Part shown: positions 17,138 to 61,217 of the stretch, piece after piece
Layout of the letters: each line of letters opens with the position of its first letter
Numbering within the stretch: the stretch's first letter is position 1
Assembly (NCBI GenBank): GCA_000405225.1
Contig: ASMP01000002.1
Location: 70,073-134,072, forward strand
Reading direction: 5' to 3'
DNA length: 64,000 nucleotides
From: Nanoarchaeota archaeon SCGC AAA011-D5
GTDB lineage: Archaea > Nanobdellota > Nanobdellia > Pacearchaeales > GW2011-AR1
Notes under the pieces: model-generated
The model's database searches: none
What the model was told of the DNA's origin: nothing
What the model saw: the letters and a program-made list of their open reading frames with translations, nothing else
Program-made: the position numbers and the translations under genes

Positions 17138-17281
17138 GATTATAAAAGCAGAGTGAAGTTTAAGAAAGTTGTGAATATTATGCACTGTTATCCGGGCATC
17201 TTCAAGATTTTCCGAGAAAACAAGAATATTTATAAAAGATATTCGATTAATAAAGGAGATACAATAACAATATACGGAAAA

Positions 17282-19474
17282 ATGAGGTTGAAAATAAGGT
17301 TGGAAGAGGGAGGATTTTTGCCTCTTATGGTTTTATTGGCGGTTATTTTTTTATCATTGGCTTTCATATTCGGGCTTTTCGGACTCTTCTCAGACAGAGT
17401 AACTGCTATTATAATTGACGGTGATGGCGAAGTATGCGGGCCTGGATTATTTAGATGCGGGCCTGTTAATAATGGAGTGTGCTGCCAAAGTGGCAGTGAA
17501 CGCTGTGTCTCTGGAGAATGCGTTGCCATTGATGCTACACCTAACGGAACTTTCTTTGATGTACAGAATGCTGCATATTGTTCTATTAGTACACCAGGCG
17601 TTGGTTATTGCGGCGGCTCATGCAAGAAAACCATTCAGATAGTGCCGGATGCATGCACAAAAAAAATTACTTTAACAAGTGTCACTTTTAATGACGAGGG
17701 CGAAACAGCTGCCAATGGAACTGTTCTTGTAAAAGACTATAGTTGCACTTGCAGAGCTGGTTCTGCTCCCTCCCCATTAGGTTCATGCGCTATTTATCCA
17801 AATGGTCCTGACGGCAACTGCGGTGGAGGAACAAACTGTGGCTCTGAATCCGGTGACGGCTTTGGCGGCGGCCAGTGTACAGGCACCCGTACATATAATA
17901 TAAATGTCCCATTCACAAGAGGTATACCGGTATCTGCATATATTTATGCAATAGATGATTGCAGGTCAAAGGGGGCAGGTCTGTGGGGTGAAGGCAGAGC
18001 AATTTATACAGAAAATCGTTTGAGGTGTGATACTGGGTATAAATGTGATGCATCTACAGGCAGCCCGCGATGCGTGCTTCTCTGCGGTGATGGTTTTTGC
18101 GATGCGAGTGAAGATATAACAAGCTGTCCCCAGGATTGCACGCCGCCGCAAATTTGCGGCAATGGATTAGTAGAAACAGGCGAGCAATGTGATGATGGAA
18201 ATACCGATTCAGGTGATGGTTGTTCAAGCACATGCCAGATAGAATCCCCAAACAACCCTAAAGGAAGCTTTGATAGCTTATACTACGTACCTGGTGAGTT
18301 ATGTGATACTAGTAGTCGTGCACCACTTGATGGATGGGCATGTGATGCTGATAATTATAGCCAGACATTGAATGTAGAACTTTATGCAGACGGACAAAGA
18401 GGAAGCGGTGTTTTAATAGGAACTGTGCGTGCAAACAGAACAAGAGAACAAGCTGTTGGCAATGAATGTGGCGGCATTAGAAACCATGGTTTTGTGTTTA
18501 AACTTGAAAGTATTCCTGAAGATTTTAAGGATGGAGCAAATCACCAAATCTATGCTTATGGAATTAATATAGGCTCAGGCAATGATACCTTGCTTAAAAA
18601 TTCACCGATAACAATTAATTGTGAACCGCCTCCGCCTCCGCCTCTATCATGTGTTTTAAACTCTGCCTCATGGAGTGTAAACCAAACTGTCGAAGGTCAG
18701 ATTGTTGATTTGAGAGTCACAACTATAGACTGCCAAGGTCAAGAACTATTTTTCAAAGTTAAAGAGAACGATGTCCCCCCTCTTCCTGATACTCCTGCAA
18801 ATATAAATCCTGCAAATGTTTTTGTTGCGGTTGGCGGAACAGCTATATCAGTATCAAACTGGACTGCAGAATGGATTGATGATGGTCTTTTCCAAGGAAA
18901 TCCTGAATATTATTTCACAGCAACTCTTGTAAGCACAGGACAAAACATACAGAGTTCAAATGAACTGCAGGTTTATCAGCAAGCTCCTTTACTTTGTGAG
19001 GGTGTTGTTACCTGCTCAAATTACTTAAACCAGCAGGACTGTGAAAATGATATTTGTATAGTGGCAAACAACAGTGTTCCAGTTTCGGTTGACTGCAGTG
19101 ATCCTGACACAGATTGCTCATGTTTGTGGAATACAACCAAAAATAGCTGTGAGGGAAGCTGGAAAAGAACCAGTAAAGGCTCAGATATCGGAACCTGCCA
19201 ATATACAGAAAATACTGCAGACACCTGCGAAGATGACGGATATCTGACAGTAGATTTAACTGCAAGATGGATTTGGGATTCGGGATGTGATAATACTTGC
19301 CGTGCAGACAATCAGGAAGCCGCATCAAAATGCCAGTCAACTACAGAAATTTTCCAGTGCCCTGCGCAGATACCTCTGCCTTTCTTCGGATTCTACAATG
19401 CGCTGGCCTCAATTGTTTTAATCGCAGTAATTTACTGGACAATAAGTTTAAGAAAAAGAGGGAAGAGAAAATAA
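17282..19474 (+). CDS. Large Cys-rich surface protein with Myxococcus-type Cys-rich repeat and C-terminal anchor
   Basis: N-terminal hydrophobic helix; CGNGLVETGEQCDDGN..GDGCSSTCQ repeat; LPFF + TM + basic tail; start 17282 preferred (ORF track 17153). Confidence 0.75.
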   Translation: MRLKIRLEEGGFLPLMVLLAVIFLSLAFIFGLFGLFSDRVTAIIIDGDGEVCGPGLFRCGPVNNGVCCQSGSERCVSGECVAIDATPNGTFFDVQNAAYCSISTPGVGYCGGSCKKTIQIVPDACTKKITLTSVTFNDEGETAANGTVLVKDYSCTCRAGSAPSPLGSCAIYPNGPDGNCGGGTNCGSESGDGFGGGQCTGTRTYNINVPFTRGIPVSAYIYAIDDCRSKGAGLWGEGRAIYTENRLRCDTGYKCDASTGSPRCVLLCGDGFCDASEDITSCPQDCTPPQICGNGLVETGEQCDDGNTDSGDGCSSTCQIESPNNPKGSFDSLYYVPGELCDTSSRAPLDGWACDADNYSQTLNVELYADGQRGSGVLIGTVRANRTREQAVGNECGGIRNHGFVFKLESIPEDFKDGANHQIYAYGINIGSGNDTLLKNSPITINCEPPPPPPLSCVLNSASWSVNQTVEGQIVDLRVTTIDCQGQELFFKVKENDVPPLPDTPANINPANVFVAVGGTAISVSNWTAEWIDDGLFQGNPEYYFTATLVSTGQNIQSSNELQVYQQAPLLCEGVVTCSNYLNQQDCENDICIVANNSVPVSVDCSDPDTDCSCLWNTTKNSCEGSWKRTSKGSDIGTCQYTENTADTCEDDGYLTVDLTARWIWDSGCDNTCRADNQEAASKCQSTTEIFQCPAQIPLPFFGFYNALASIVLIAVIYWTISLRKRGKRK

Positions 19475-19632
19475 TAAAGTTGTCATTCTTCACAATAAAT
19501 CTTAAATAATACTAGAAGAGTGCTTATTAATGGAATTTAGAGAGATAATGGAAATGCCTCAAATATTTCTTATGATAATTGGATTAATCATAGTACTTCC
19601 TCCAATTTTCTTGATAAAAACAATTAAATTTC

Positions 19633-20244
19633 TTAGAGAGTAAGAATATAATCGAAACCTTGATTAAATAATCTTTCTTCTTTACTTAATATCCTCTTTT
19701 TTTGAGTGAGTCTTACATTAAACATTTTTTTACCAACTTTATTAAGAACTAATAATCCAGTAGGAATAATTTTTGGGCCAAATAGATTAATCTGCTTTTT
19801 AGATGCATGTATGTCTCCTAAAATAACAAATATTTTTTCATTATTAATTAGTTTAAGTATATTCTTCGCGAGTCCCATCTCTTTTTCCTCTTGATTATAT
19901 GCAAAGGGTTCTATAAAAAATATCTTTATATTTTTCTGATTTTTCAAATTTATTTTATAAATCTCTTTTATAAAATTAATATATTCTTGGTTATTTCTGC
20001 TATCTAAGTTTTCTTTTGAAAAGAAGGGAATTTTTTTGAGTATATTATAATTTCCATTTTTCATGAAAGAATCTATCTGACTTTGGAATTCTATAGGAAT
20101 CTCGAGGCATAAATTAAAATCTTGTTCTTTAGCTATTTCAGAAAAAAACCTTAAAAGCATTCTATAATTTTCTTTGGTTCCATGAATTTCACCAAATAAG
20201 ATAAGTTTTTTATCCTTTATTTTATCTTTTAATTCTTCAAACAT
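19633..20244 (-). CDS. EreA/ChaN/Tiki-superfamily protein (possible metallo-hydrolase/peptidase)
   Basis: LILFGEIHGT (GExH), CLEIP, ILGDIHA; 1 nt downstream of the ATP-grasp gene. Confidence 0.55.
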   Translation of the reverse strand: MFEELKDKIKDKKLILFGEIHGTKENYRMLLRFFSEIAKEQDFNLCLEIPIEFQSQIDSFMKNGNYNILKKIPFFSKENLDSRNNQEYINFIKEIYKINLKNQKNIKIFFIEPFAYNQEEKEMGLAKNILKLINNEKIFVILGDIHASKKQINLFGPKIIPTGLLVLNKVGKKMFNVRLTQKKRILSKEERLFNQGFDYILTL

Positions 20245-20245
20245 T

Positions 20246-21205
20246 TTATTCTATAAAGTTTTCGGCAACTAATTTGGTTAAATTATAACCTGATTTAAGT
20301 TCAAGCCATAACCATTGCCCATTTGGATTTAGTTCTAAAAATACGTATTCTCCACTATCAGAGTATATAAAATCAAAAACACCGAAATGTAACCCATAAT
20401 GTTTTAGCATATTTGAACAAAATCTTTGAACATTTTCAGGTAATTCTAAATGTTTATAAGGAACATTTTTGAAATCATATCTTCTGTAATCAACCTGTGA
20501 AATTTCCGATTCCTGAGAATAAATTGCTATTCCTGATGAATTTCTGTCAGTTGAAATTATCCTAATTTCAAACTCTTTATTGATATATTCTTGAAATATG
20601 CATGGATGAGAAGAAACAAGTTCAACATTTTCCATATTCTTTCTAGTTACCTTATTTGTGTATATCATTTTATTTCCTTCTTCAGTATCAATAACTGCCC
20701 CTTTATGTAGTTTAAAACAAATATTCCCATTATGTTTTTCATAAAAATCCCTTACTCTATCAGGATCGTTTGTTACAATTGTATCTGGAATCAAGATATC
20801 TCCCCCTATGTTTTGGGCTAACCTAAGCTGATCTATTTTATTATTAGCATGTAATTGGTTTTGGGGTCTGTTTATTACTTTACCTTGATGTGACATAAGT
20901 AAACCATCCCAAGCTCTTTCTGTCTCATCAAATATTATGTCGGTTAAACTTCTTGGGGTTATTTTCCTTACATCCGGATTCATTACTCTTCTATTCCAAA
21001 TATTCCATGATGGATTAATAACTACTTTCCTATTTCCCTTATTTATTTTATAAAGAGAAGATTCTGAATCAAATGTTAATTTATATCTGTCTGGCAAGCA
21101 TTCTGTATCAACTACAAAAAAATCAATTCCTTTTCCAGAAAGATAATTGCAGACCGACTCTGCATGTGGGTCTTCACCATAAGTCAAGACTAATATATTC
21201 TGCAT
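20246..21205 (-). CDS. MvdC/MvdD-like ATP-grasp peptide macrocyclase
   Basis: IWNRR, NKIDQL, IPDTIVTND, FQEYINKEFEIR, DYRR, FGVFDFI, FLELNPNGQWLWLE. Confidence 0.9.
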   Translation of the reverse strand: MQNILVLTYGEDPHAESVCNYLSGKGIDFFVVDTECLPDRYKLTFDSESSLYKINKGNRKVVINPSWNIWNRRVMNPDVRKITPRSLTDIIFDETERAWDGLLMSHQGKVINRPQNQLHANNKIDQLRLAQNIGGDILIPDTIVTNDPDRVRDFYEKHNGNICFKLHKGAVIDTEEGNKMIYTNKVTRKNMENVELVSSHPCIFQEYINKEFEIRIISTDRNSSGIAIYSQESEISQVDYRRYDFKNVPYKHLELPENVQRFCSNMLKHYGLHFGVFDFIYSDSGEYVFLELNPNGQWLWLELKSGYNLTKLVAENFIE

Positions 21206-21220
21206 GTTTAGAGTGTTTAT

Positions 21221-21424
21221 TTAGAAATCATCCCAAATTGGCACACCTCTATAGGTACATGCTGTAGCACTAAACTTTGCTAAACAACTCCCTTCTGCAC
21301 CTGCAAATACAGGGGTTTCAAAATACTGTTCAGCAAAAGATATATACCTTTTCTCTTGTAAGGAGGTATTTTTTACTCCTTCTTTAGAAGATTCCTCAAG
21401 CCTGTCCTCTACTGTTTTTGCCAT
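21221..21424 (-). CDS. Putative graspetide (RiPP) precursor peptide, 67 aa
   Basis: MAKTV...ISFAEQYFE...SCLAKFSATACTYRGVPIWDDF; ends 15 nt upstream of the ATP-grasp gene; ATG at 21424. Confidence 0.7.
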   Translation of the reverse strand: MAKTVEDRLEESSKEGVKNTSLQEKRYISFAEQYFETPVFAGAEGSCLAKFSATACTYRGVPIWDDF

Positions 21425-21519
21425 AAAAAATAAGGACCAAGTTATATTTAAATATTTCTGTAATTCACAATTCACAAACAAATTTATAAAGTATTCTCGC
21501 TATTTTACGGGATAAAAAG

Positions 21520-24150
21520 ATGGCTGAAAAAAAGGGGCTTTTTGTTGGGTTTTTTTTAGGGGTGTTTCTCATTTCTATTATCAGTTTTGCCTCTGCAAGT
21601 TCTAGTATTGGAAATCCCAAGCATTCTTTGGAGACAGTTTACGGGCCTTCTGATAATATCACCGGGTGGGTAAATATCAGTTTTTCCTCAGAGCCCGTGA
21701 ACTCTGTTCTTAGCGATTCCAGGGGAAATTCCGCAAATCTGTCATCTGTATTAAAAAAAAATGTGGCATATCCTTATTCCTGCAGTCCAATAGACTGCAA
21801 TGACGACTACACGGCAAGCAGCGGAAGCGAGACAAAGACCATTACCCTGGATTATGGAAATTCAAAAATTTACGGAGTTAAGCTGACAGGAAATATCTTC
21901 AGCATAGATTCTTTCAAGTTTGCTCTTGACAGCACCGCCGGCGCTTATTGCACGAACCAAATTGAAATTGATTTCCTTGATGATTCTGTTCTGGATGCCA
22001 GAAACAAGAATTCTTCGGATTCGGAAAGCTGCTCTAATCCAAAGAATTACGGGTGCTTTGATTCTGAAAGAACTTTGGAGGAATTCGCGATAGGAACAAC
22101 TCCTTACTGTGAAAAGGTTTTTTTCACCGACTCTCCCGGTTTTTTCATAGGAGGATGGATAAAAAAAATTAGCGGTTCAAAAACAATAAAGGCCTCTGTT
22201 TACGAAACATTAGGAGGAGGGGAAATTGCAAACTGCATACTGCCAGATACCTCCACTACTGGACAAGAAGTTTCCTGCAACGTGAGTTATTCTATTACCG
22301 AACCTAAAGAGCATTACGTCTGCATTTCTTCTGTCAATGGTTCAGGGGAATACAGGACAAGAGGATATTCGATTAGTAATGGCTGCGGATTCTATGGGAC
22401 GCCTGTTCCCTCTGCAACGCCTGCAGCTTACCAGATATTTAGCCAAGGAAAGCAATTCGGTCCTGTTGGAACCGCTGAAATAAATAAATCCATCGGTGAC
22501 GGAAGAAGCCTTGCAGAACTTGCAGGAGAATACATCACAAAAAAATATGGGGCTCAAAATTGTTCTTCGGGATGCATCATCCCTATAAAGATAAAATCCA
22601 ACTTAAACCAGGATATAACCCTGAAAAATTTGCAGGTAAACTATCAGAAAGACATCGGGATAGCTACGGAGAGCAACTTCTATGAAGTTTCAAAAACACC
22701 CGCAAAGGTTTCTTCTGGTTCCAATAAACTTTACCTGGACGGCTTGGGATTTTCTGTTCCTTCAAATCTCGGGAACTACACTTTTTCCCTCAGGCTTAAC
22801 AACCAGAGCATGATTTCTGAAAAAATAGAAGTGAAAGACATCCCCATAATAAAATCGGTAAATCCTGCAAAGACAGCATCGGCATATCCGACAGAATTTA
22901 GTGTCAGCGTCACTTCCAAATATAATCTCACCAGATTTGCCTGGGACTTTGGTGACGGCACGCCGGAAATAACAACGACGGGAAATAAAGCCAGCCATGC
23001 CTACAGTTCAACAGGAGTTTACAATCTAAAAGTGAGAGTTACAGATCAGAGGCAACTCAGTGCTTCCAAGTCTTTTGTGATGAATGTCAGCTCTCCAAGG
23101 GAACTGATAAATTCCAGTCTTTATGATGCAGAAAGAGACATTTCAAATCTAGAAAAAGAGATTTCGGCTTTTTCCGGGTTTTATCAGGATGTTTTAAATC
23201 TGTCCTTAAATCTGGACAATACCAAACAAAAAGTCACTTCTTTAAGAAAGTCCTACCAGAACGCAACCTCAGAGGAGCAGTACAATGCAATAGTCACAGA
23301 AATAGTTGAATTAAATATCCCTGAAGGAATATCCAAGAGCAAAAGCGCAGAGGGTCTTACTTTGTTTTCCGGGCCAGATTACGTGAATCTTCCTGTTCTT
23401 AAGGAAATAGGCGGAGGCACTTACGACGCAAATAGGGAAGGGGACTACGTAAACGCTGTTTTATCATGGAAGCAGGAAAACCTTGACACTGGCCTTGGTT
23501 TCAGCGAACTTTCTGGAAGATATCCTGGATACATAGAACCCCTGGCAAGAATTTTTGAGATAGATGTCAGCGAAAAAAGAGACATACCTTATGATTATTA
23601 TCTGATTATTCCGGAGCTGGAAGGGTTCAAGACAGATACAGAATCCAGCGTGGAAGCGTTAGAAGGATATGTCTATATCAATCTCAAAGGAAAGAAGTCT
23701 GTCTCTTTTTCAACCACAGAAGACATTGATTTCACAAATCTTCCTGTATTCATATCCCCTGCAATAAGCAGGCTGACTGTTATAGAAGAAGCCCCTCCTG
23801 AAGAAAAGCCCAGATGGAAGGTCTTCATTCTCATAGTCTTCTCGCTCCTTGTCATTGGCTTCGTGGTATACATAATAATGCAGGAATGGTACAGGAGGAA
23901 ATACGAAAATTATCTCTTCAAAAATAAGAATGACCTTTACAATATGGTGAATTATGTAAACAACGCCAGGAAAAAAGGGATTGATAACAGAAAGATAGAG
24001 GAAAATCTGAAGAAAGCAGGATGGAGTTCTGAGAGGATAAGGTATGTGATGAGAAAATATTCCGGAAGAAGGACAGGAATGCTGGAAATCCTCCCGATAA
24101 GAAAACTGACAGAAAAATCCGGAGGGGGCGGCGGAAAACCGAATAATTAA
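21520..24150 (+). CDS. PKD-domain membrane-anchored surface protein
   Basis: Signal peptide, WDFGDG PKD motif, C-terminal TM and LKKAGWS cytoplasmic domain. Confidence 0.8.
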   Translation: MAEKKGLFVGFFLGVFLISIISFASASSSIGNPKHSLETVYGPSDNITGWVNISFSSEPVNSVLSDSRGNSANLSSVLKKNVAYPYSCSPIDCNDDYTASSGSETKTITLDYGNSKIYGVKLTGNIFSIDSFKFALDSTAGAYCTNQIEIDFLDDSVLDARNKNSSDSESCSNPKNYGCFDSERTLEEFAIGTTPYCEKVFFTDSPGFFIGGWIKKISGSKTIKASVYETLGGGEIANCILPDTSTTGQEVSCNVSYSITEPKEHYVCISSVNGSGEYRTRGYSISNGCGFYGTPVPSATPAAYQIFSQGKQFGPVGTAEINKSIGDGRSLAELAGEYITKKYGAQNCSSGCIIPIKIKSNLNQDITLKNLQVNYQKDIGIATESNFYEVSKTPAKVSSGSNKLYLDGLGFSVPSNLGNYTFSLRLNNQSMISEKIEVKDIPIIKSVNPAKTASAYPTEFSVSVTSKYNLTRFAWDFGDGTPEITTTGNKASHAYSSTGVYNLKVRVTDQRQLSASKSFVMNVSSPRELINSSLYDAERDISNLEKEISAFSGFYQDVLNLSLNLDNTKQKVTSLRKSYQNATSEEQYNAIVTEIVELNIPEGISKSKSAEGLTLFSGPDYVNLPVLKEIGGGTYDANREGDYVNAVLSWKQENLDTGLGFSELSGRYPGYIEPLARIFEIDVSEKRDIPYDYYLIIPELEGFKTDTESSVEALEGYVYINLKGKKSVSFSTTEDIDFTNLPVFISPAISRLTVIEEAPPEEKPRWKVFILIVFSLLVIGFVVYIIMQEWYRRKYENYLFKNKNDLYNMVNYVNNARKKGIDNRKIEENLKKAGWSSERIRYVMRKYSGRRTGMLEILPIRKLTEKSGGGGGKPNN

Positions 24151-34751: not shown

Positions 34752-36812
34752 CTAAATCAGTCTCTCCTCAACTATTCTAGAGATGCCGTGCTCTTTGCGG
34801 AATCGTATCACGTTTTCTACAAAGCTCTCTATTTTCGGCTCATGACTGACAATTATAAGCTGCTTAACTTCCAGCTGCCGCAAAACATCGCGCATCTTAT
34901 CGAGTTGCTGCTCTGAAAATCCGTCGGTAGGCTCGTCGAGAATGACCAAATCCTTGGTCTTTATCCTGCTCATGAGTGAATTGACCACCCGGTTCAGCGA
35001 AAGCCTGTAGGCAAGGGCTATTGCTGTTCTTTCGCCCCCGGAAAGATAAGAGTAGTCTATCTCATAATCCTGATGATATATTATAGGAGTGAATTCCTCG
35101 TCCAGGCTCACATCAAAAACATCTGAGACAAGCATAGAGAACCATTCTGCAAACAACCTTGAGAACTCTGATTTCAGTCTCACCATTACATTTTTCTCTG
35201 TGAAAGAAATCAGAGAGACGAAGTTTCCTGAAAACCATTCTTCCAGTTTCGTTATGATTTCCATCTTTTCTCTTATTTCCTCTGTCTTTTTGATTCTGGC
35301 TTTTAAGTCTTCTATCTGGCGAGAGAATACTTCTATCTCTTTTTTCAGCTCTGCGACTTTTATCTCTGCTATTCTTTCCTGCTTTATTGCTTCTTTGAGT
35401 TCTTTGTCTTTCAATTCAAGAACAGTTTCAAATTTTTTCATTTCAAAAACACTCTTAGTGAGGTTTTCCGCGTGCTGCTCCAAAAGAACTATGTCTTTCC
35501 TGAGAATCTCGCTGGATTTTTCCATCTCCGCAAGCCCTGCTCTTTTGCCGTCTATTTCCTGAAATCTCATTTTTTGCATCCTTAACTCTGAAAGCCTTTT
35601 TTCTTCTGCAGAGATGTCTGCTTCTATTTTTTTCATATCTTCCAGGATCTTTTTCTTTTCAGAGGCCAGAGACTCTATTTTTTTCAGATTTTCCGTTGTT
35701 TCTGAATCAATGTTATTTAAGACATTTGTTTTGTAAACAGGGCCAACATTCTGCAGGCATATTGGGCATATCTCTATGTGTTTTAACTGCTCTTTTATCT
35801 TCCTGATGTCCTGGTTTTTTAGATTAAGGGAGTTTATCTGTGAGGTGATTTTTATGTTTTCCTCGTTCAGCTTTTCTTTTTCTGCTTTCTTGAACTGCAT
35901 CTTTAATTCTGCTTCCTTTATTTTGGTTTCATCAAATTTTAGGCTTTCCAGATCTTTTATCTGAATTTTCAGCTGCTCAAGGGTTTTTTCGTTATTCAAG
36001 AGGGTTTCTTTTTTGTTTGCAGAGACAATTTTTGTCTTTTCTATTTCCTGCTGCAGTTTTCTCCTTTCCTCTGTCTTTTTTAAGACCTCGTCTCTTTCTT
36101 CCTGTGCATGCCCCATTTCCTCTGTCCTTAGAAAGAGCTCTTTTTCTACAGAAGAAAGATTCAGATGTTTTCCTTCAAGTTCTTCTTCTTTGGAGAGAAG
36201 GGATTCTTTGTCTTCTTCAAGATTTGCAATCTGGCCTTCTTTCAGTCTTTTTTCCTCACGAAACTTTGAGGCAACTATAGACACATTCTCAATTATCACT
36301 TTGTATTTGTCTATCCCAAAAACATGCCTTAGAGAGTTTATCCTTGTTTCAGGATCTTCAAGAATAATCTGCTTCATCTCTTCCTGCGGAGTGTAAACTG
36401 TGAATTTGTAGAGGATATTCTGTTTTTTTGAAAACTCTTTAGGATAGCTTAGGATTTCGAGGACCTTGTCTTTCAGTTCTGTGACGGACAGCTCTTTTTT
36501 TCTCCCTTCTAGTGTTATAGAGCAGTAATCCTGAGAAACCGCTTTTCCCTTTTTCAGTTTCCTTTCAATTATAATCTCTTTTCCATCAACATCCAGACGG
36601 AGGACAACCCCTCCTTCACTGGTTCCGTTTCTCAGAAGAGCAGTTCCCCTCTGTCCTGGTTGCAGTCCAAAAAGCGCAAACTCTATCCCAAGGAGTATGG
36701 ATGTTTTTCCTGAGCCTATGTCTCCTGAAAGAAGCGTGGACCCCTCTGGAAAAGATACTTCCTGATTTTCATAACTTCTGATATTGTTGAGGATTATTTT
36801 TTTAATTATCAT
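34752..36812 (-). CDS. rad50: Rad50 / SMC-like ATPase
   Basis: GDIGSGKT, CPIC zinc hook, LSGGE, LDEPT; real start MIIKKI at 36812 (ORF track 36911). Confidence 0.95.
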   Translation of the reverse strand: MIIKKIILNNIRSYENQEVSFPEGSTLLSGDIGSGKTSILLGIEFALFGLQPGQRGTALLRNGTSEGGVVLRLDVDGKEIIIERKLKKGKAVSQDYCSITLEGRKKELSVTELKDKVLEILSYPKEFSKKQNILYKFTVYTPQEEMKQIILEDPETRINSLRHVFGIDKYKVIIENVSIVASKFREEKRLKEGQIANLEEDKESLLSKEEELEGKHLNLSSVEKELFLRTEEMGHAQEERDEVLKKTEERRKLQQEIEKTKIVSANKKETLLNNEKTLEQLKIQIKDLESLKFDETKIKEAELKMQFKKAEKEKLNEENIKITSQINSLNLKNQDIRKIKEQLKHIEICPICLQNVGPVYKTNVLNNIDSETTENLKKIESLASEKKKILEDMKKIEADISAEEKRLSELRMQKMRFQEIDGKRAGLAEMEKSSEILRKDIVLLEQHAENLTKSVFEMKKFETVLELKDKELKEAIKQERIAEIKVAELKKEIEVFSRQIEDLKARIKKTEEIREKMEIITKLEEWFSGNFVSLISFTEKNVMVRLKSEFSRLFAEWFSMLVSDVFDVSLDEEFTPIIYHQDYEIDYSYLSGGERTAIALAYRLSLNRVVNSLMSRIKTKDLVILDEPTDGFSEQQLDKMRDVLRQLEVKQLIIVSHEPKIESFVENVIRFRKEHGISRIVEERLI

Positions 36813-36819
36813 TGCCCAA

Positions 36820-37980
36820 TCATATAGCAAAGATTTTTTTAGTTTCATCCAAAAGCCTGTTGGTAAAACTTTCCGTGGTTTCACCTTCCTGTTTTTCAGT
36901 GGACAGTGCACTCATTATTTGGGGGATAAACTTGTTGAATGCCGCAGGATTTTGTTCGGAATATTTTTTTATTGACTCCTCCTCTATATTTTCTGTTTCG
37001 GGGATTTCAGTCGCAATCTCTGCCTCTTTTGTCTTCAAATCGTGGGTATTTCGCAGCAAAAAAAAAGCTCCTTTTTTCTTTGCGGTTTCCTCTATCTTGG
37101 CAAATTTTATATCAGAGTGTTTTCCGCTTTCCAGAATCCCGCGTATCCTCAGAAGAACTATCTTGTCTTCCAGATCTTGCTTTTCAAGTTCGGAGAGAAT
37201 CTGCTCTGTTGCCCTTATGGCGTTTTTTACCTCTATATCAAAAGAAACCACGTTCTTGATTTTCAGGTCGATTCTTTTTAAGGGTTTTTCAAGACTGGAA
37301 TCCACGATGTAAAATCTTCCGTGCTGCAAATCTTCCAGTTCCTGGAAATTATTCGGAAATATTGGACCGGGATAAACAAAATTTTCATATTGAAAATCAA
37401 TGTGCAGGTGTCCAAGGGCATAATAGTCTGCCTTGGGGACTTTTGAAATTTCAAGAGCGTCTATGGGAAGGTTCCCTTTCGCCTTGTCTATAGTCGTATG
37501 CAGCAGAAAGATTTTGAATAAGCCAGGGGCTTCGTCAAACTGAGCTCTTCTCAAATCCCCCACTTCAAGTCCAGAGGTTTTTCCAGGATATCCGTAGAGT
37601 GCAACCCCTTTATGAATCGTCGGACTCAATATTATCCTATCATTTTTTTCTTCAAACACGGCGACGTTTTTGCAAAAACCTGCCTTCTCCAAAACATCGA
37701 GGAAAGTTTTTCCAGAAACAGAATAGTCGTGGCTTCCTGCAATTAAAAAACACGGGATTCCTGCTTCTTTTAGTTTTCTGAATTCCGCAAAACTTTCTTT
37801 AAGGACGTCTATTGGCGGGAAAGCTGCATCAAAAAGATCTCCTGCAATAACCACGAATTCTACTTTCTCCCCGATGCATATTTCAAGAGCCTTTTTGAAG
37901 GACTCGAGATTAAGATCCTGCAGAGGCTGTTGTTTCCATCCTCCGAGATGTACGTCAGCTATATGGGCAAATTTTACCAT
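36820..37980 (-). CDS. mre11: Mre11 nuclease
   Basis: ADVHLG, AGDLFD, GSHD, LLHT, LGHLH. Confidence 0.95.
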   Translation of the reverse strand: MVKFAHIADVHLGGWKQQPLQDLNLESFKKALEICIGEKVEFVVIAGDLFDAAFPPIDVLKESFAEFRKLKEAGIPCFLIAGSHDYSVSGKTFLDVLEKAGFCKNVAVFEEKNDRIILSPTIHKGVALYGYPGKTSGLEVGDLRRAQFDEAPGLFKIFLLHTTIDKAKGNLPIDALEISKVPKADYYALGHLHIDFQYENFVYPGPIFPNNFQELEDLQHGRFYIVDSSLEKPLKRIDLKIKNVVSFDIEVKNAIRATEQILSELEKQDLEDKIVLLRIRGILESGKHSDIKFAKIEETAKKKGAFFLLRNTHDLKTKEAEIATEIPETENIEEESIKKYSEQNPAAFNKFIPQIMSALSTEKQEGETTESFTNRLLDETKKIFAI

Positions 37981-38073: not shown

Positions 38074-38384
38074 AGCTAAGGCCATTCCAAAAGCACAGCT
38101 GTTCTCGTTGTTGCCATGGTTGTTCGAGTTAACATTCAACCTGTTGTTGCCCAAGTTCCTGTTGGAATTCAGACTCGCAACCCAGCTATGTAGCCAGTTT
38201 ATCTCATGAAATTTTTATTTTTCATGTCAGGAATCTTGCCTGCACAGAGCAAAATTTAATTTGCACACCATCGCTTCAAGTTTCGCAAATATTAGATATA
38301 AAAACTACTATTTGTCGCGATTGAATTTTATGACTTAAAATAAACCTGAATAATGCCTTAATAAACTGGCGTGTGGCCTTAGCT
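38074..38384 (-). ncRNA. Putative DGR template RNA (structured 5' domain + TR), bounded by long-range pairing
   Basis: 11-bp IR 38374-38384/38074-38084 encloses TR; nested 10-bp IR 38361-38370/38193-38202; hairpin 38205-38226; no avd ORF. Confidence 0.6.
38087..38183 (-). repeat. DGR template repeat (TR)
   Basis: 97 nt, 30 adenines on minus strand (12 AAY codons in target frame); differs from VR only at adenines. Confidence 0.97.
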
Positions 38385-38447
38385 CAAGCTTTTTTTAAGC
38401 TCTGCTAAGACAAATAAATAAGTAAAAACAGGTTTAAATTTTTTGCG

Positions 38448-38464
38448 AACCAGCTTCGCTGGTT
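38448..38464 (-). other. DGR target-recognition hairpin (7-bp stem, GAA loop)
   Basis: AACCAGC-GAA-GCTGGTT immediately after the target stop codon. Confidence 0.85.
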
Positions 38465-39165
38465 TACTTCAACACCCCAAAAGCACAGCAGTACTCGTCG
38501 CTGCCACGGTCGTACGAGACAACATCCAACCCGTCGTCGCCCAAGTCCCCGTCGGAACCCAGACCCGCAACCCCTGCTTCTGGTGTTTTCAAACTTGATA
38601 AATCTGGAACCCAAATGTGAGCTTTTTTATCTGGGTGTTTTGATGCAAGTTCTGCAAGTTTTTCAGCTCCTTCTTCACCACCAGCCCATGCAACAAAGTA
38701 AGGATGCTTTCCTACTTCTTTCCAGCTAACAGGACCTTGCCTAAGATGTTCAAAAGAAACTTGCGCACGGCTTTCGGCTAATCTTTTTAGCAAACCACCT
38801 CTATCAACAACAGAATTCTCATCAAATTCAGGATTATCTATAAAATGAGCAATTCTTTCTTTTGGAAGGTAAAGAATTCCTGTAAATCCTCTGAAATATC
38901 TATCTTTCATAATCTGATTAACTTCTCTTGCTTGAGGTTCATTGCCACTAAAATATTCATGAACAAAAGAAACTAATTCCGAAGTTGTTGGTTCTCTATA
39001 ACCAGTTGGATTTTCAGAAGAACCTCTTATTCGCCTTAAAAGATTCAGGGAATTTGCAGGGCCATAAAACGGATGCACCGCTGTTAAAATTTTTCCCTTG
39101 TGTGGAAAATCCATTTCTGTTCTTCCAACTCTTATTCTTTGTCTTGTGTCAGATTGAGTTTCCAT
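38464..39165 (-). CDS. DGR variable (target) protein, CLec-like
   Basis: C-terminal VR encodes VAGLGSDGDLGDDGLDVVSYDRGSDEYCCAFG. Confidence 0.92.
   Translation of the reverse strand: METQSDTRQRIRVGRTEMDFPHKGKILTAVHPFYGPANSLNLLRRIRGSSENPTGYREPTTSELVSFVHEYFSGNEPQAREVNQIMKDRYFRGFTGILYLPKERIAHFIDNPEFDENSVVDRGGLLKRLAESRAQVSFEHLRQGPVSWKEVGKHPYFVAWAGGEEGAEKLAELASKHPDKKAHIWVPDLSSLKTPEAGVAGLGSDGDLGDDGLDVVSYDRGSDEYCCAFGVLK
38477..38573 (-). repeat. DGR variable repeat (VR)
   Basis: Aligns to TR at offset 390: 19 mismatches (15 A>G, 4 A>T), none at the 67 non-A positions. Confidence 0.97.
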
Positions 39166-39760: not shown

Positions 39761-41110
39761 TTAATCAAACCTCAGAATTTTTCCGTTGGGGGATAAATGA
39801 GAAGTTTCGCCAAACTTATAGCCGAGTTCTCCCACAAGTTCAATTAAAGGGGTTTCCTGCTGTAAAGAACCATGTGCAGGGATTACGTGCTCTGGTTTTA
39901 ACATATTCACGAGATCCCTCATGTCTTCCCTGGCGCCATGCCCTGAAACATGCACATCTGTCTGAATCCTCACTCCCTTTTTTCTAAGCCTTTTGTCCAT
40001 TCTTTCTCTGGCGTTTATATTAACAGGGTCTGGAATGACGCTGGAGCAGAAAACTATGTTGTCTCCTTCCCTGAGTTTTAGAGGAGTTTCGTCCTTTACT
40101 ATCCTGTCAAGTATAGAGCCGGGTTCTGCCTGATGTCCTGTGCACACAATCAGGTATTTCCCCCTGTTTTTTTCCACTTTTCCCAAGAAAGAATCTACCT
40201 GCTTCCTGTATTTCATCATCGCTATGTCTTTTTTGAAGGGGCATTGTCCTACTTTTATTGCTGCATTTGTATATTTGTAAAGGCTTCTTCCAACAAAGAT
40301 TATCTGCCTTCCTGTTTTTTTTCCGAAATCAACTATGCTCTTAAGCCTTGATATATGGGAAGAAAAAGTCGTGACAATGAAGGCAGCATTTCTGTCTCTT
40401 ACAGAAGAAATGGCATCTTCAACCATATTTCTTGCTATTCTCTCACTCGGTGTTTTCCTTTCTAATTTTGAATAAAGGGCATCAAGCACGAGTACTTTGA
40501 TTCCTTTTCTTCCAAGCTCCCTTAGTTTGTTGTATCTCGGGGGGTCTCCTATTATAGGATAGTTATCGAATTTAAAATCCAGCGCATAAAAAAAAGTTCC
40601 TTCAGAAGTATGCATTGCTATGAAAACGCACTGCAAAGTTGAATGCGTCGCGTGAATGAACTCCATCTTTATCTGACCAGAGCTTCCATTTAAGACATAA
40701 GTTGAATCTTCCTTGACAATTCGCCTTCTGTTTTTAACGACAATTTTTTCACTTTCCAGAATTTCATCAAGAACAGCCATCGTGAAAGGTGTTGCAATTA
40801 TTTCTGCCTGAGGATACCTGTGAACAAGATAAGGCAATGCCCCTAAATGGTCCAGATGTGCGTGTCCTATGACTATAGCCTTAACTTTATTTGTCCAGCC
40901 GTATTTGTCAAGGACAAGATCATCCGGAAGCGCTCCAATTCTCCTTAAATCTTTCTCGTTATAGATGCGCTCATGGCTTTCTTCTTCCTGGATTTCTATT
41001 ATTGCAGGAAGATAAATCCCTGCATCAAAGATTATCACGTCGTCCTTGACTTTTACAGCAGTCATGTTCTTTCCAACCTGCTCAAATCCACCAATTGTGC
41101 AAACTTCCAT
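39761..41110 (-). CDS. rnj: Ribonuclease J
   Basis: GGFEQVGKNMT, GHAHLDHLG, HVSGH, PAHG. Confidence 0.95.
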   Translation of the reverse strand: MEVCTIGGFEQVGKNMTAVKVKDDVIIFDAGIYLPAIIEIQEEESHERIYNEKDLRRIGALPDDLVLDKYGWTNKVKAIVIGHAHLDHLGALPYLVHRYPQAEIIATPFTMAVLDEILESEKIVVKNRRRIVKEDSTYVLNGSSGQIKMEFIHATHSTLQCVFIAMHTSEGTFFYALDFKFDNYPIIGDPPRYNKLRELGRKGIKVLVLDALYSKLERKTPSERIARNMVEDAISSVRDRNAAFIVTTFSSHISRLKSIVDFGKKTGRQIIFVGRSLYKYTNAAIKVGQCPFKKDIAMMKYRKQVDSFLGKVEKNRGKYLIVCTGHQAEPGSILDRIVKDETPLKLREGDNIVFCSSVIPDPVNINARERMDKRLRKKGVRIQTDVHVSGHGAREDMRDLVNMLKPEHVIPAHGSLQQETPLIELVGELGYKFGETSHLSPNGKILRFD

Positions 41111-57273: not shown

Positions 57274-58627
57274 CGTGGACGTGAAAACATGGTGAGGGAA
57301 GAAGTTCCTTTATCAGTTTGAGAAAATAACTCACAATTATTTTCAATGAGATAAGCAACGAATGGTTTTCCTGATTTAGAAGGACATACTATTACCGACG
57401 CTGTTAGATGGATGGCTTGGTTTTGGTTTCGATGAAAGACGTGGCAAGCTGCGATAAGCTTGGGGGAGCCGCATGCAAGCTTTGATCCCAAGATTTCTGA
57501 ATCGTGCACCCATGTTTACATGGTCTGCAAGAATACGCCGGGAATTGAAACATCTTAGTACCGGCAGGAAGAGAAAATAAATTAATGATTCCCCTATTAG
57601 CAGAGAGCGAAAAGGGAAGAGGGCAAACCGAATCTCCTCTTGAAAGGGAGGCAGAGATGTGGTGAGCGTAAATTCCTAAGTCGTCGAGTCAAACTTCTCT
57701 GGAATGAGAGGCCTTGGAGAGTGATAGCCTCGTAGACGAAGATGATATGGAGTTGCTTTAAAGAGTAGGGCTCCCTGGATTGGGGGTCTGAATACGGCAG
57801 GATTAACTGCCAACCCTAAATAAAACCAAAGTCCGATAGCGCACTAGTACCGCGAGGGAATGCTGAAAAGAACCCGTAACAGGGAGTGAAAAGATCTGAA
57901 ATCTAACAGTTACAGTTTGTTACTGCCCTTTCCTCTTCGGAGGATTGGGGTTGTAACGTACGTTTCGAAGAACGAGCCAGGGAGTTTATTTGTGTGGCGA
58001 GGCTAATCATCTATAATGAGTAACCGAAGCGAAAGCAAGTTGGAAACAGCGAGAGTCACACGAATCAGACCTGAAGCCAGGTGATCTAATCATGGGCAAG
58101 GTGAAGTCTTCCGAAAGGAGGATGGAGGCCTGAACCAGTGTTGTGTACATGCACTTGGATGATCTGTGATTAGGGGTGAAAAGCCTATCTAACCTGGTGA
58201 TGGCTGGTTCCTGCTGAAATATGCCTCCGTATAGTCTTGTCTAGCTTGTCGACGGTGTAAAGTACGGATAAAATTTGCAGAGGCTAATGCCTACGGAATT
58301 TTTTCCAACTCAGAATCTGTCGACTGCATAGGACAAGAAACAGGGTGTGTATGTAAGATACACCTCCGAGACCCAAAAAAGGGAGACCAGAGTTAAGGTC
58401 CCTAAATTCATGCTAAGTGCGACAAAAGGTGTCCTGGACCTGAGACACTAGGGATGTAAGCTTAGAAGCAGCTATCATTTAAAGAAAGCGTAACAGCTCA
58501 CCTATCGAGGCCCAAGGCCCTGAAAATGGACGGGGCTAAGCATGGTACCGATACTCTGGAGGCACTCGGTTTAAAATAGTATAACAAAAATCAAAGATTT
58601 TTGTGCGTCTGCCAAGATGGTAGGCGC

Positions 58628-59140
58628 GGGAAGAATTTTTTATATGAAATAGGAAAAGAAAAGGTTTTTAAACTTTAAAGTAACAACAAAATTATGAATT
58701 TGAAGACGCTCCTTACAACAAAAAAAGATGAAAGAATAATGATGGATTTTGCTAGAGGAAAGATTAATTATTTAGAGGATGGTTTTCTTCAAAAAAATTT
58801 CCCAGACTTGTTTAGAAATCTTAAAAGTTATCGCGGTAGATGGGATGAGTTTGGAGAAGAACTTGAAAGAAGGTGTATAGAAAGAACAAGAGATATTTCA
58901 CAAAGAAAGGTAGATTATGGTGCAATACTTCATAATGTTGGAGTTGCTATTCCATTTTATTTTTTTACTGCACTCGTTAATATTGTTGGTGGTCTTGGTG
59001 GGGGGATTCATAAAACCCAAGAGATGCTTGATGAGGATTTAAGACCATATATGAAACCAACTTATAAATTGGCAAATTCTAATTAAAATATAATTCACAA
59101 ATCATATTCAACGAAAGTTGATTTCATAATTAATTCTTCC
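58628..59140 (+). mobile_element. Inverted-repeat-bounded gene cassette, copy 2 (inside 23S)
   Basis: Ends match 51175-51197 and 51503-51540; left and right ends pair 9 bp + 8 bp. Confidence 0.8.
58694..59086 (+). CDS. Cassette cargo: hypothetical 130-aa protein with hydrophobic segment
   Basis: Intact ORF with upstream TTTTAAA box; no LAGLIDADG/HNH/GIY-YIG motif seen. Confidence 0.7.
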   Translation: MNLKTLLTTKKDERIMMDFARGKINYLEDGFLQKNFPDLFRNLKSYRGRWDEFGEELERRCIERTRDISQRKVDYGAILHNVGVAIPFYFFTALVNIVGGLGGGIHKTQEMLDEDLRPYMKPTYKLANSN

Positions 59141-59838
59141 TGTACTATACAGAGTGTTCTGGTAAGCAGGCGTCTTTTCTGCGTCGAAGCTTCTTCGAGA
59201 GAAGGGGTGGAGCGGAAAGGAATGAGAATCCTGGTGGTAGTAGGATGTGATTTCTCTGAGAAAGAGAAACGTCGAAAGGGTAAGGTTTCCTTGGCAATAT
59301 ATTTTAGCCAAGGGTTAGTCAGCGCCTAAGTTGTGCCCTAACAGAGTACGACGATGGACAACAGGTTAATATTCCTGTACTGATCAAATTTTACATTTTA
59401 GGAAAGCTTTCGGATAAGCAAGCACCCGGAAGGGTGTTCTGGGAAAGAGACGGGGGGAGCGTAATGCAAAGATCTCTGTGAATTTTTCAGACAAAATTTC
59501 TGACTCCGAGAGCCAGTGAAAAGTTCTAGAGTTAAACGAGTTTGGTTAGCTGTACCCACAACCGACACTGGTGCCCTAGCTGAGAAGGCTAAGACGTGAA
59601 AGGAAAAACCAACTAAGGGAATTCGGCATATTGGTCCTGTAGCTTCGGCTGAAGGGATGTCTATCTTTGTGCTTCGGTTCGCAAGAATTTTAGGTGCATC
59701 GGTAGATTACAATAACAAAGATGGCCCGACTGTTTACCAAAAACGTAGCCAAGTGCTAATCTGTAAAGACTTGTATACTTGGTGAGCCCTGCCCAGTGGC
59801 GGTGTCTGAAACCCCTTTTCAAGGGGGCTAATGCCCGT

Positions 59839-59875
<37 letters not shown>

Positions 59876-61099: not shown

Positions 61100-61217
61100 T
61101 TTCAGCCCACAACTACTAAAAGCCTCAATTTGAATTTTCTTTATAAGAAGATTCTATAATATGTTATGTCCACACAATTCTTTTTCAGAAAACCATTCGT
61201 TGTTTGTTGAGTTTTTT
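61100..61217 (+). repeat. 23S 3'-end repeat copy 1 (118 bp identical to 61891-62008)
   Basis: Exact direct repeat; first 39 bp also at 62571-62609. Confidence 0.95.

Follow-up and report, generated by a model that had tools for sequence, protein, structure and literature searches.

The question raised by this locus is what is made by three closely spaced genes, all on the minus strand, which encode in this order a 67-aa peptide, a 319-aa ATP-grasp ligase and a 203-aa protein. The window (the whole stretch of DNA analysed, 64 kb in length) carries archaeal 16S and 23S rRNA genes, and the closest relatives of all three genes occur in MAGs labelled Pacearchaeota, Nanoarchaeota or Woesearchaeota; the assignment of the host to DPANN rests on these labels. 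Comparison of sequences and predicted folds indicates that the three genes very probably constitute an operon by which a DPANN-type archaeon would make a graspetide (omega-ester peptide), most likely a bicyclic one. A previous sequence-only reading of this DNA had proposed a graspetide-like RiPP cluster in such an organism, and the proposal is supported, the ligase being of the graspetide type and the small ORF conserved.

The ORF listing confirmed the positions, sizes and gaps given in that reading. The precursor gene (21221..21424, minus strand; MAKTVEDRLEESSKEGVKNTSLQEKRYISFAEQYFETPVFAGAEGSCLAKFSATACTYRGVPIWDDF) starts with the ATG at 21424 and ends with the stop codon at 21221-21223; the ligase ORF (20246..21205) begins 15 nt past this stop and the third gene (19633..20244) 1 nt past that of the ligase. 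The listing places the start of the small ORF at an upstream TTG, 21481, and the start Met of the relatives aligns with 21424. The cluster is also AT-rich, as had been stated, with 29.0% GC (ligase 30.4%, third gene 23.9%) compared to 37.6% for the window. No further copies of the precursor were found elsewhere within the 64-kb window.

By sequence and predicted fold the ligase is a microviridin-type graspetide macrocyclase, and its earlier description as an enzyme of the MvdC/D type was borne out. It matched TIGR04185 (MvdC) over its full length (residues 4-318) at 3.8e-61 and PF21068, the leader-binding MvdD pre-ATP-grasp domain, at 29.4 bits (gathering score 27). The profile of its family retrieved AMdnB, MdnB, CdnC and MdnC from the PDB, full length, at 1e-50 to 1e-58, and the same profile matched PsnB weakly (1.4e-11). 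The AF2 model (pLDDT 90.6) gave MdnC and CdnC as the best fold matches at TM 0.82-0.85, and Foldseek ranks 1-32 were taken by MdnC, CdnC, AMdnB, MdnB, PruB and PsnB (TM 0.66-0.85, E 1e-16 to 1e-28). The residues of the ATP-grasp site involved in Mg/ATP binding (K165, Q205/Y207, D278, E291 and N293) are invariant across 33 relatives. An identity of the RimK/LysX type, considered as the alternative, was rejected: the score was 207 bits with MvdC against 35.6 bits with RimK (TIGR00768, cutoff 143.4), and RimK/LysX/ArgX structures appeared first at Foldseek rank 33 (TM about 0.60-0.65, E about 1e-13). The ligase falls below every NCBIfam equivalog cutoff (207 of 425 bits for TIGR04185, 168 of 475 bits for TIGR04184), and therefore its specificity could differ from that of the known enzymes; on these scores it is a distinct subfamily and not a microviridin ligase in the strict sense.

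The precursor belongs to a family of 107 members of 55-101 aa, all labelled hypothetical, and a homologous small ORF adjoins the ligase in 16 related loci (L001-L016), among which the identity of the ligase goes down to 41%. Judged by this conservation the small ORF is a real gene, and the doubt raised in the sequence-only reading, that it might not be conserved, is excluded. The leader-like segment noticed there proved to be a strongly conserved F-A-E-[MQ]-Y-L-E motif with a putative recognition role. It lies at residues 27-38 (YISFAEQYFETP, 21311..21346, minus strand), was located in 106 of the 107 members and has the consensus Y-x-x-F-A-E-[MQ]-Y-L-E-x-P, with Y in 91, F in 103, E in 99, Y in 95, L in 98, E in 105 and P in 95 of these 106. 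The motif resembles the PFFARFL leader of microviridin, both being of the F-A-x-x-[FY]-L type, and also the Phhx(1,2)h signature (PMC8939145), but without the initial Pro of the latter. Comparison of close relatives showed nonsynonymous divergence of the leader at the N-terminus. Over the last 20 codons each pair differs by 2-3 synonymous and 2 amino-acid changes, and beginning with F51 every replacement is a conservative one (S/T or V/I).

The core peptide comprises residues 49-67 (AKFSATACTYRGVPIWDDF, 21224..21280, minus strand), and its consensus is [ST]x[TS]xCT[WFY][RK]G[IV]Px[IV]DD[WFY]. Counted over the 107 members, the first part has T/S in 103, T/S in 107, C in 97 or S in 10, and T/S in 107; the middle part W/F/I/Y in 106, R/K in 104, G in 93, I/V in 107 and P in 105; and the end T in 89, I/V/W in 107, and D in 107 at both Asp positions. 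W, F or Y follows DD in 98 of the 107 members, and in those 98 the aromatic residue is the C-terminal one. Thus two Asp (D65 and D66 in the window) and two Thr/Ser positions are invariant. The conserved hydroxyl positions of the window's precursor are S52, T54 and T57, which are the candidate ester donors, with D65 and D66 as candidate acceptors. The donors and acceptors proposed earlier, Ser/Thr/Lys and the terminal Asp-Asp, stood as regards Ser/Thr and Asp-Asp and failed as regards Lys, of which none is conserved in the family; omega-amide bonds are unlikely because K50 of the window's precursor occupies a variable position and Lys is not a conserved donor. It may be added that three conserved hydroxyl positions face only two conserved acceptors. 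To our knowledge, the conserved Cys (97/107) has no role in known graspetide chemistry.

Biosynthesis would start from a 67-aa precursor with the conserved leader, of helical type, and the conserved C-terminal core of 18-19 residues. The MvdC/MvdD-type ligase would bind the leader, activate the side-chain carboxylates of D65 and D66 with ATP and join them to Thr/Ser hydroxyls, giving two macrolactones with a mass loss of 36 Da, and judged from the conserved residues a two-lactone peptide is the most likely product. T54 and T57, at positions hydroxylated in 107/107 relatives, are the most probable universal donors. Relatives with P-T-I-D-D (83%) might alternatively form a link from Thr(15) to Asp(18) like that of marinostatin or microviridin.

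Among the known systems, microviridin and marinostatin (group 1; MdnB/MdnC, AMdnB, CdnC) provide the best sequence and fold matches of the archaeal ligase. They also share the layout of the core (Thr - P1 residue - basic - ... - Pro - Ser/Thr - x - Asp - acidic), and Thr/Ser-to-Asp ester links as well as a protease-inhibitor function are predicted likewise for the archaeal peptide. The differences are nevertheless considerable. The archaeal ligase is only about 25-30% identical to the ligases of this group and lies below the MvdC/MvdD equivalog cutoffs; the cluster has one ligase instead of two; and the core, unlike that of microviridin, contains no conserved Lys, hence no lactam is expected. 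The Thr-to-Asp spacing is +8/+9 instead of +6, an upstream Thr/Ser-x-Thr/Ser-x-Cys element and a C-terminal aromatic residue are added, neither an N-acetyltransferase nor an ABC transporter is present, and the host is archaeal. Plesiocin and thuringinin (group 2-3) are likewise produced by a single ATP-grasp ligase, which makes all Thr-acidic ester links, and their hairpin-like bicyclic units inhibit proteases; they differ in having repeated core units (TTxxxxEE and similar) and other leaders, and PsnB matched the archaeal ligase profile weakly, as stated above.

The graspetide loci of CPR branches 1 and 2 (PMC8939145) likewise occur in ultra-small, presumably symbiotic organisms and have a single ligase and an ester-only Thr...Asp core with the signature TxxxTx(6-10)Dx(1-4)D; for some loci of branch 2 the presence of a peptidase of the Tiki/TraB family has been noted. 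One CPR locus, L018, is a branch 1 member according to the supplement of that paper, and its precursor core SATRCGTKEFNIIDD resembles the archaeal SATACTYRGVPIWDD. Otherwise the CPR and archaeal precursors are unrelated in sequence, the ligases being at most 34% identical, and in the CPR loci L035 and L052 the precursors are short and located downstream of the ligase. The paper gives the L018 ligase no precursor and describes no DPANN cluster, and two GW2011_AR18 archaeal ATP-grasp proteins are merely listed in its supplementary table, without precursor. At the level of the precursors, a close parallel of the archaeal [ST]x[TS]xCT[WFY]...DD is found in graspetide group 27 (Carter et al. 2026, PMC13097080, Fig. 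S4), represented for instance by Candidatus Angelobacter, in which the core is T-x-T-x-C-T-hydrophobic ... D-G-D, e.g. ITATKCTVLANKFADGD. Group 27 likewise comprises minimal BGCs with uncharacterised products, but differs in the GG-type end of the leader, in DGD instead of DD and in several precursors per locus, and the co-occurring families listed for it include no TIKI-fold protein.

The third protein (19633..20244, minus strand, 203 aa) had been described as EreA/ChaN/Tiki-like with a GExH motif, and this description is upheld by a GEIHG at residues 18-22, by the match to PF04187 (ChaN/Tiki) and by the predicted fold. The Pfam match is marginal (29.8 bits, gathering score 27.7) and limited to the N-terminal residues 7-63. 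The AF2 model (pLDDT 92.7) matched ChaN, RRSP, the B. cereus Ere-family structures 2RAD/3B55/2QGM, EreC and HopBA1 at E <= 0.001, all with probability 1.00 and TM (query) of 0.55-0.74, ChaN being the best; PMT was just below this threshold. A set of two His and two Glu (E19, H21, E48 and H146) is invariant in 35 relatives and spaced as in RRSP, whose catalytic set is E3900/H3902/E3930/H4030 and for which the TIKI catalytic motif has been demonstrated (PMC6254334). The protein thus has the alpha/beta fold of the TIKI superfamily (Tiki1/2, RRSP, TraB/PrgY, EreA/B/C, ChaN, HopBA1) and keeps the E-x-H ... E ... H set of its hydrolases; unlike these, it shows on inspection by eye no evident signal peptide or other secretion signal, and it sits in a RiPP operon. 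With 203 aa it represents a bare catalytic core, lacking the accessory lobes of RRSP, whereas Ere enzymes have roughly 400 aa. On sequence and model it is predicted to be a minimal TIKI/ChaN/erythromycin-esterase-fold hydrolase. Of the relatives within the archaeal clade of ligases, 16 could be assessed, and in 14 of these a homologue adjoins the ligase; the same holds for three CPR loci (L018, L035, L052), the homologues of which retain the catalytic residues. Compared with most relatives, the window's protein is missing about 20 aa internally as well as the VTPCSF tail at the C-terminus.

What the hydrolase acts on is the point at which the possible readings diverge. Since the TIKI superfamily includes esterases (EreA/B/C) as well as non-enzymes (ChaN, PMT C1), the fold by itself does not imply a peptidase; the protein is probably the leader peptidase, and there is a slightly better than even chance that this cytoplasmic TIKI-fold hydrolase, with its intact 2His/2Glu site, would remove the leader, cutting at some point within the variable linker that follows the conserved E-x-P-[VI]-x-x-G. 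The idea, already proposed in the sequence-only reading, is reasonable and was partly anticipated by Makarova et al. 2022 (PMC8939145), who noted Tiki/TraB-family peptidases in CPR graspetide loci. The same authors raised modification or resistance as what an Ere-like protein might do in graspetide loci of gammaproteobacteria. The main rival, a less likely reading to which we give about one chance in four, is an omega-ester hydrolase resembling erythromycin esterase, which would open the lactone rings again and so provide self-protection, turnover or regulation. It is favoured by the profile of the family, whose only significant PDB sequence match is the Ere-family 2RAD/3B55 (5.5e-5), by the Ere-type fold matches (EreC and 2RAD/3B55/2QGM, TM 0.62-0.74), by the lactone esters of the predicted substrate, the type of bond cleaved by Ere enzymes, and by the apparently cytoplasmic location, where the protein would meet the freshly cyclised peptide. 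However, an enzyme undoing the product of a ligase encoded 1 nt upstream in the same operon would run a futile, ATP-consuming cycle unless regulated, the operon would be left without any leader-removal function, and RRSP and Tiki, with the same 2His/2Glu site, are endopeptidases (PMC6254334). It is improbable that the protein is non-catalytic on the peptide, acting as a partner or scaffold of the ligase or being a ChaN-like haem- or metal-binding neighbour. Graspetide synthetases dependent on partner proteins are now known (PMC13097080), and the best Pfam and fold matches are to the haem-binding ChaN family, but the invariance of the four catalytic residues in the 35 relatives and the CPR homologues points to catalysis, signal peptide and lipobox, both traits of ChaN, are not evident by eye, the pairing with the ligase in both archaea and bacteria speaks against a chance neighbourhood, and a Lutibacter locus retains precursor and ligase without the third protein. 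Once released by the preferred leader peptidase, the bicyclic peptide would, with about even chances, inhibit serine proteases of the subtilisin or chymotrypsin type in the manner of a substrate, C56-T57-Y58-R59 occupying P3-P2-P1-P1'. This is suggested by the C-T-aromatic-Arg...Pro segment, which resembles marinostatin and the loops of canonical serine-protease inhibitors: marinostatin (F-A-T-M-R-Y-P-S...) has Thr at P2, Met at P1 and Arg at P1', and canonical inhibitors often have Cys-Thr-P1 (PMC9623506, Table 3). A different role of the cyclised peptide, in signalling, adhesion or host manipulation, or as a toxin toward host or competitors, is possible but less probable than inhibition. Neither a transporter nor a target protease is encoded in the operon, the flanking genes encode large Cys-rich and PKD-domain surface proteins, and neither marinostatin nor microviridin has a counterpart of the nearly invariant Cys or of the aromatic C-terminus. 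Against this, T-aromatic-R-x-x-P-T-x-D-D parallels marinostatin (T-M-R-Y-P-S-D-S-D) and microviridin, the C-T-P1 element agrees with the canonical loops, and every graspetide characterised as of 2022 was a protease inhibitor (PMC8939145).

It was also considered whether the cluster belongs to this genome. The search with the ligase gave 411 database matches at E <= 1e-5, the best 120 of which were 44-100% identical. In a neighbour-joining tree the archaeal ligases form one clade with a Lutibacter sequence nested within it; the deep branching of the tree is star-like and untrustworthy, including the position of a Paceibacterota sequence as nearest outgroup. Identity is 41-90% within the archaeal clade against at most 34% to bacteria, and a neighbourhood of RtcB, PKD protein and GTPase is common to the window and two related loci (L084, L087), the synteny reaching relatives down to 47% ligase identity. 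The single clade and the synteny argue for a cluster that is resident and was inherited vertically. That it was acquired recently from bacteria, or is an artefact of binning or assembly, is very improbable. Such an origin would agree with the ligase and third gene lying 7-14 GC points under the window average, with the recurrence of this dip in most of nine relatives checked, with the CPR or other bacterial identity of the nearest non-archaeal ligases and with the close relative on the Lutibacter contig. However, the cluster lies inside a window bearing archaeal rRNA genes, the identity gap to bacteria is large, and since the Lutibacter sequence nests inside the archaeal clade, any transfer ran the opposite way. 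As evidence of transfer the GC dip was rejected. Although real, it may reflect no more than Lys/Asn/Ile-rich cytoplasmic against Gly/Cys/Thr-rich surface proteins, so that the amino-acid composition of the neighbouring genes' products is a confounder, and the synteny contradicts a transfer. In IMG/VR no close relative of the ligase was found, 33% being the best identity, and there was no sign of a viral vehicle. The Lutibacter locus (L003), in which the hydrolase is absent, fits the possibility that the ligase alone may suffice for cyclisation. One relative (P0025/L106) is labelled 'Patescibacteria', and its gene context leaves both a bacterial and a mis-binned archaeal contig standing.

Graspetides are already known, also from CPR loci that contain a peptidase of the Tiki/TraB family, and by its sequences the present cluster appears as a previously undescribed archaeal branch of this class. 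Neither the archaeal precursor motifs nor PF04187 were found in the searched portion of the published graspetide datasets (including the supplement of PMC13097080), and no prior description of a DPANN graspetide family was found in the literature searched, the largest published tables being covered in part. Within the same scope, the only archaeal graspetide group mentioned is one confined to Thermoprotei (PMC13097080), and DPANN ligases occur only as supplementary-table rows that carry no annotation. Archaeal graspetides have barely been described; the present family is large, with at least 107 precursor clusters and several hundred ligases, all labelled hypothetical, and it is tightly conserved. 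Its retention in very small genomes suggests that the peptide matters, and would be explained if the peptide contributed to the way these organisms live. Leader removal is poorly understood in graspetide biosynthesis, and a 2024 study stated that release of the core had until then not been demonstrated in vitro (PMC11626197). A concrete candidate for this step is the TIKI-fold enzyme of about 200 residues, whose active site is intact and whose gene accompanies that of the ligase in archaea and in CPR bacteria. The short core could in addition serve as a compact, engineerable inhibitor scaffold. The more speculative proposal, which we regard as tentative, is that in this family, shared by DPANN and some CPR, a two-lactone protease inhibitor of the marinostatin kind goes together with its dedicated leader peptidase, a minimal TIKI-fold enzyme. 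If true, the latter would be a new class of RiPP protease, and the system a rare case of a reduced-genome episymbiont with a specialised metabolite, perhaps blunting the proteases of host or competitors at the cell-cell interface.

Signals for transcription were also read from the sequence. A sigma-70 promoter scan gave sites no more frequent than in shuffled sequence, and the model is inapplicable to archaea. A TATA-box-like element, TTTAAATATA (21443..21452, minus strand), is located 18 nt upstream of the precursor ATG; its function is suggested by general archaeal promoter architecture, and from this position it would yield a leaderless or near-leaderless transcript. A T-run, TTGTTTTTATC (19613..19623, minus strand), 10 nt past the stop of the third gene, is a possible archaeal oligo-T terminator.

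The reading of the cluster as graspetide-like, put forward in the sequence-only reading, was supported at the level of sequence analysis by both the type of the ligase and the conservation of the precursor. All three ORFs reported there are present, tightly spaced and head to tail on the minus strand in the ORF listing: the precursor ORF (67 aa, 21221-21424, ATG start) is followed after 15 nt by the ligase ORF (319 aa, 20246-21205), and this after 1 nt by that of the third protein (203 aa, 19633-20244). ORF calling gave an alternative TTG start for the small ORF at 21481; the relatives start at a Met aligned with 21424. The GC content of the cluster is 29.0% versus 37.6% for the window. A TATA-like element, TTTAAATATA, located 18 nt upstream of the precursor ATG, and a T-run downstream of the final stop codon would fit a single archaeal transcript. 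The window is archaeal: a tRNA-Ala separates its archaeal 16S and 23S rRNA genes, and the closest relatives of all three proteins belong to MAGs labelled Pacearchaeota, Nanoarchaeota or Woesearchaeota.

Comparison of the ligase with NCBIfam models gave full-length matches to TIGR04185 MvdC (3.8e-61, 207 bits), TIGR04187 (4e-53) and TIGR04184 MvdD (2.2e-49), and only 35.6 bits for RimK; in Pfam, its MvdD pre-ATP-grasp domain exceeds the gathering score. A profile of 33 ligase relatives matched AMdnB, MdnB, CdnC and MdnC over the whole length at 1e-50 to 1e-58. The top 32 Foldseek matches of the AlphaFold model (pLDDT 90.6) were all graspetide macrocyclases (MdnC, CdnC, AMdnB, MdnB, PruB and PsnB; TM 0.66-0.85), and RimK, LysX and ArgX trailed the best of these by about fourteen orders of magnitude in E-value. 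Tested against RimK/LysX, the ligase thus groups with the graspetide macrocyclases instead, by both NCBIfam scores and Foldseek ranking. Residue K165, the QEY hinge, D278 and the E291-x-N293 motif are invariant across the relatives and presumably bind ATP and Mg, as expected from the ATP-grasp fold. Since the ligase scores under every equivalog cutoff, it belongs to a subfamily of its own, distinct from the microviridin ligases proper.

A scan using one genome per species yielded 17 loci with a ligase 41-68% identical to that of the window, ahead of bacterial and CPR ligases, which follow at 34% or less. Sixteen of these loci carry an archaeal label, the exception being a Lutibacter contig (L003). 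A homologue of the small ORF adjoins the ligase in 16 of the 17, and the seventeenth locus begins inside the ligase. Profile search extended the precursor family to 107 members of 55-101 aa, all unnamed or annotated as 'hypothetical'. The leader, located in 106 members, has the motif Y(91)-x-x-F(103)-A-E(99)-[MQ]-Y(95)-L(98)-E(105)-x-P(95). The core, counted in all 107, consists of [T/S](103)-x-[T/S](107)-x-C(97; Ser in the other 10)-[T/S](107)-[W/F/I/Y](106)-[R/K](104), followed by G(93)-[I/V](107)-P(105)-T(89)-[I/V/W](107)-D(107)-D(107), and in 98 of the 107 it is followed by a W, F or Y that forms the C-terminal end. The corresponding window residues are S52, T54, C56, T57, Y58, R59, G60, V61, P62, I63, W64, D65, D66 and F67. 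When the window was compared with two close relatives, whose ligases share 90% and 82% identity with its own, differences in the N-terminal leader were mostly nonsynonymous, and from F51 on only synonymous, S/T or V/I changes were found. Judged by its conserved leader and core and its place beside the ligase, the small ORF is a genuine and conserved precursor gene. The Lys donor suggested earlier has to be abandoned, no Lys being conserved among the family. In locus L012 of another genome (3681-3986) the precursor P0254 has 101 aa, with tandem leader motifs YKTFSEIFLEEQ and CMFFSEQFFERP and a C-terminal extension beyond the core (…IPTIDDPDLDDI), in which a further Asp-Asp pair is available.

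The Pfam match of the third protein to PF04187 (ChaN/Tiki family) is marginal and confined to the N-terminus. A profile of 35 relatives matched the Bacillus cereus erythromycin-esterase-family structure 2RAD/3B55 at 5.5e-5, and the AlphaFold model (pLDDT 92.7) matched the folds of ChaN, RRSP (a Ras/Rap1-specific endopeptidase), the B. cereus Ere-family proteins 2RAD/3B55/2QGM, EreC, HopBA1 and the PMT C1 domain, all members of the TIKI superfamily. Residues G18, E19, H21, G22, T23, K24, E25, E48, Q54, G143 and H146 are invariant in the 35 relatives. Among them, E19/H21/E48/H146 match in identity and spacing the 2His/2Glu set E3900/H3902/E3930/H4030 of RRSP, which is essential by mutagenesis and also present in Ere enzymes (PMC6254334). 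No signal peptide was seen by eye in the third protein; it comprises no more than the catalytic core of the TIKI fold.

The third gene stands beside the ligase in 14 of 16 assessable loci of the archaeal-type ligase clade, the exceptions being Lutibacter L003 and the divergent L014. Gene order and orientation vary: L010 has the precursor in last position, and in L084 the third gene is encoded on the other strand. Three CPR bacterial loci (L018, L035 and L052) likewise have, next to their graspetide ligases, homologues that retain the four 2His/2Glu residues, and sharing of this accessory hydrolase between the DPANN family and some CPR bacteria is supported by these sequences. The wider superfamily comprises 2690 representatives at E <= 1e-3, a number that drops to 65 at E <= 1e-30; a fusion to an S41 peptidase occurs in one distant relative. 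About 20 aa (consensus KGxFFNxGxK) are missing from the interior of the window protein (19633-20244, -), as from relatives P0122, P0123 and P0135; it also has no C-terminal VTPCSF tail, a feature of most relatives whose loss is shared with P0135 only.

In enzymes of the MdnC, PsnB and CdnC type, the ligase binds the leader, ATP phosphorylates acidic side chains, and these are then captured by Ser/Thr hydroxyls or Lys amines. In the present precursor the acceptors would be the two invariant Asp residues of the core (D65, D66), and two lactones would be expected in the cyclised product. T54 and T57 are the first choice as putative donors, since only these positions are hydroxylated in every family member. 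Alternatively, the 83% of members with P-T-I-D-D could form a Thr-to-Asp link at +3, which would copy both marinostatin (P-S-D-S-D) and microviridin (P-S-D-W-E); the window subclade has Ile or Leu at that Thr position, so such a link would not be universal. The C-T-[aromatic]-R...P segment parallels F-A-T-M-R-Y-P-S of marinostatin (P2 Thr, P1 Met, P1' Arg), and C-T-[aromatic] the Cys-Thr-P1 of ovomucoid and tomato protease inhibitor-II (TI-II) (PMC9623506, Table 3). Because of these inhibitor-loop parallels, and because the graspetides characterised by 2022 were all protease inhibitors (PMC8939145), the product may inhibit serine proteases in a substrate-like manner, with an aromatic residue at P1, a proposal whose chances we regard as about even. 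Leader removal by the third protein is slightly favoured, as the operon contains no other protease and TIKI-fold enzymes with the same active site include site-specific endopeptidases. The same fold also includes the erythromycin esterases, and hydrolysis of the lactones in their manner would be a serious rival to leader removal, if a less likely one.

Graspetides have been studied extensively as a class. Graspetide loci are known in CPR bacteria, a Tiki/TraB-family peptidase having been noted in some (PMC8939145). The latest RODEO survey gives 43 graspetide groups, one confined to Thermoprotei, and group 27 cores (T-x-T-x-C-T...D-G-D) that resemble the archaeal core (PMC13097080). No description of this DPANN family was found in the accessible parts of the published literature; the archaeal motifs and PF04187 were not found in the published supplements as far as their tables were searchable, which is not proof of absence. 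In the portions available, two ATP-grasp proteins of the DPANN archaeon GW2011_AR18 appear only as table rows without a precursor, and the L018 ligase has no precursor assigned (Makarova 2022, PMC8939145). The data support a graspetide family that extends across DPANN archaea and has a core motif of its own. Likely precursors ending in Asp-Asp accompany the TIKI-fold gene in the CPR loci (L018 3650-3907, L035 4982-5092, L052 3623-3772): in L018 …SATRCGTKEFNIIDDQRSSD, upstream of the ligase, and in L035 and L052 short …TASWTGQGSFKHQDD peptides downstream of it.

A neighbour-joining tree, unreliable at its deep nodes, places the archaeal ligases together in one clade. The window cluster lies between RtcB and a PKD-domain surface protein with a GTPase, these genes are also its neighbours in L084, where the ligase is 47% identical, as is RtcB in L087 (82%); the common flanks indicate that the cluster is resident and inherited. 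In most of the nine relatives checked, the ligase and third gene show a GC dip as in the window, the meaning of which is ambiguous. The Lutibacter sp. MAG contig NZ_JAWVXC010000003.1 (304 kb, bacterial, Bacteroidota) carries precursor and ligase (L003 3812-4966, 62% ligase identity) and no third gene, within an island that also encodes an ArsR regulator, heavy-metal-associated, E1/JAB-like (494 aa) and E2-like proteins, and an XRE/ImmA pair. Since its ligase nests within the archaeal clade of the neighbour-joining tree and its precursor occurs on three contigs, transfer from archaea to a bacterium is suggested, as is the ability of the two-gene module to stand alone.

Radical SAM/SPASM genes, absent from the window, lie 2-5 kb from the cluster in L084 (2886-3992, with an adjacent acetyltransferase) and L106 (4467-5390), which may be due to chance or to an extra tailoring step in some lineages. 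In the window, the cluster is flanked by a 773-aa Cys-rich, surface-protein-like protein with a DUF4215 repeat (17153-19474, +) and by the surface-like PKD-domain protein of 876 aa (21520-24150, +), followed by the GTPase of 213 aa.

The tRNA-Ala of the 16S-23S spacer is the single tRNA in the window. The archaeal LSU rRNA match (57384-61139, +) spans 3756 nt against a 2987-nt model, the extra 770 nt or so being insertions or introns, and contains no ORF of at least 150 aa. An Rfam RT-16 RNA match was found at 38185-38410 (-), with 105 bits against a gathering score of 50. No reverse transcriptase was present among the four neighbouring ORFs checked, which encode a Rad50/SbcC-like ATPase (34752-36911), an Mre11-like phosphoesterase (36820-37980), a 233-aa product without Pfam match (38464-39165) and an RNase J-like protein (39761-41110).
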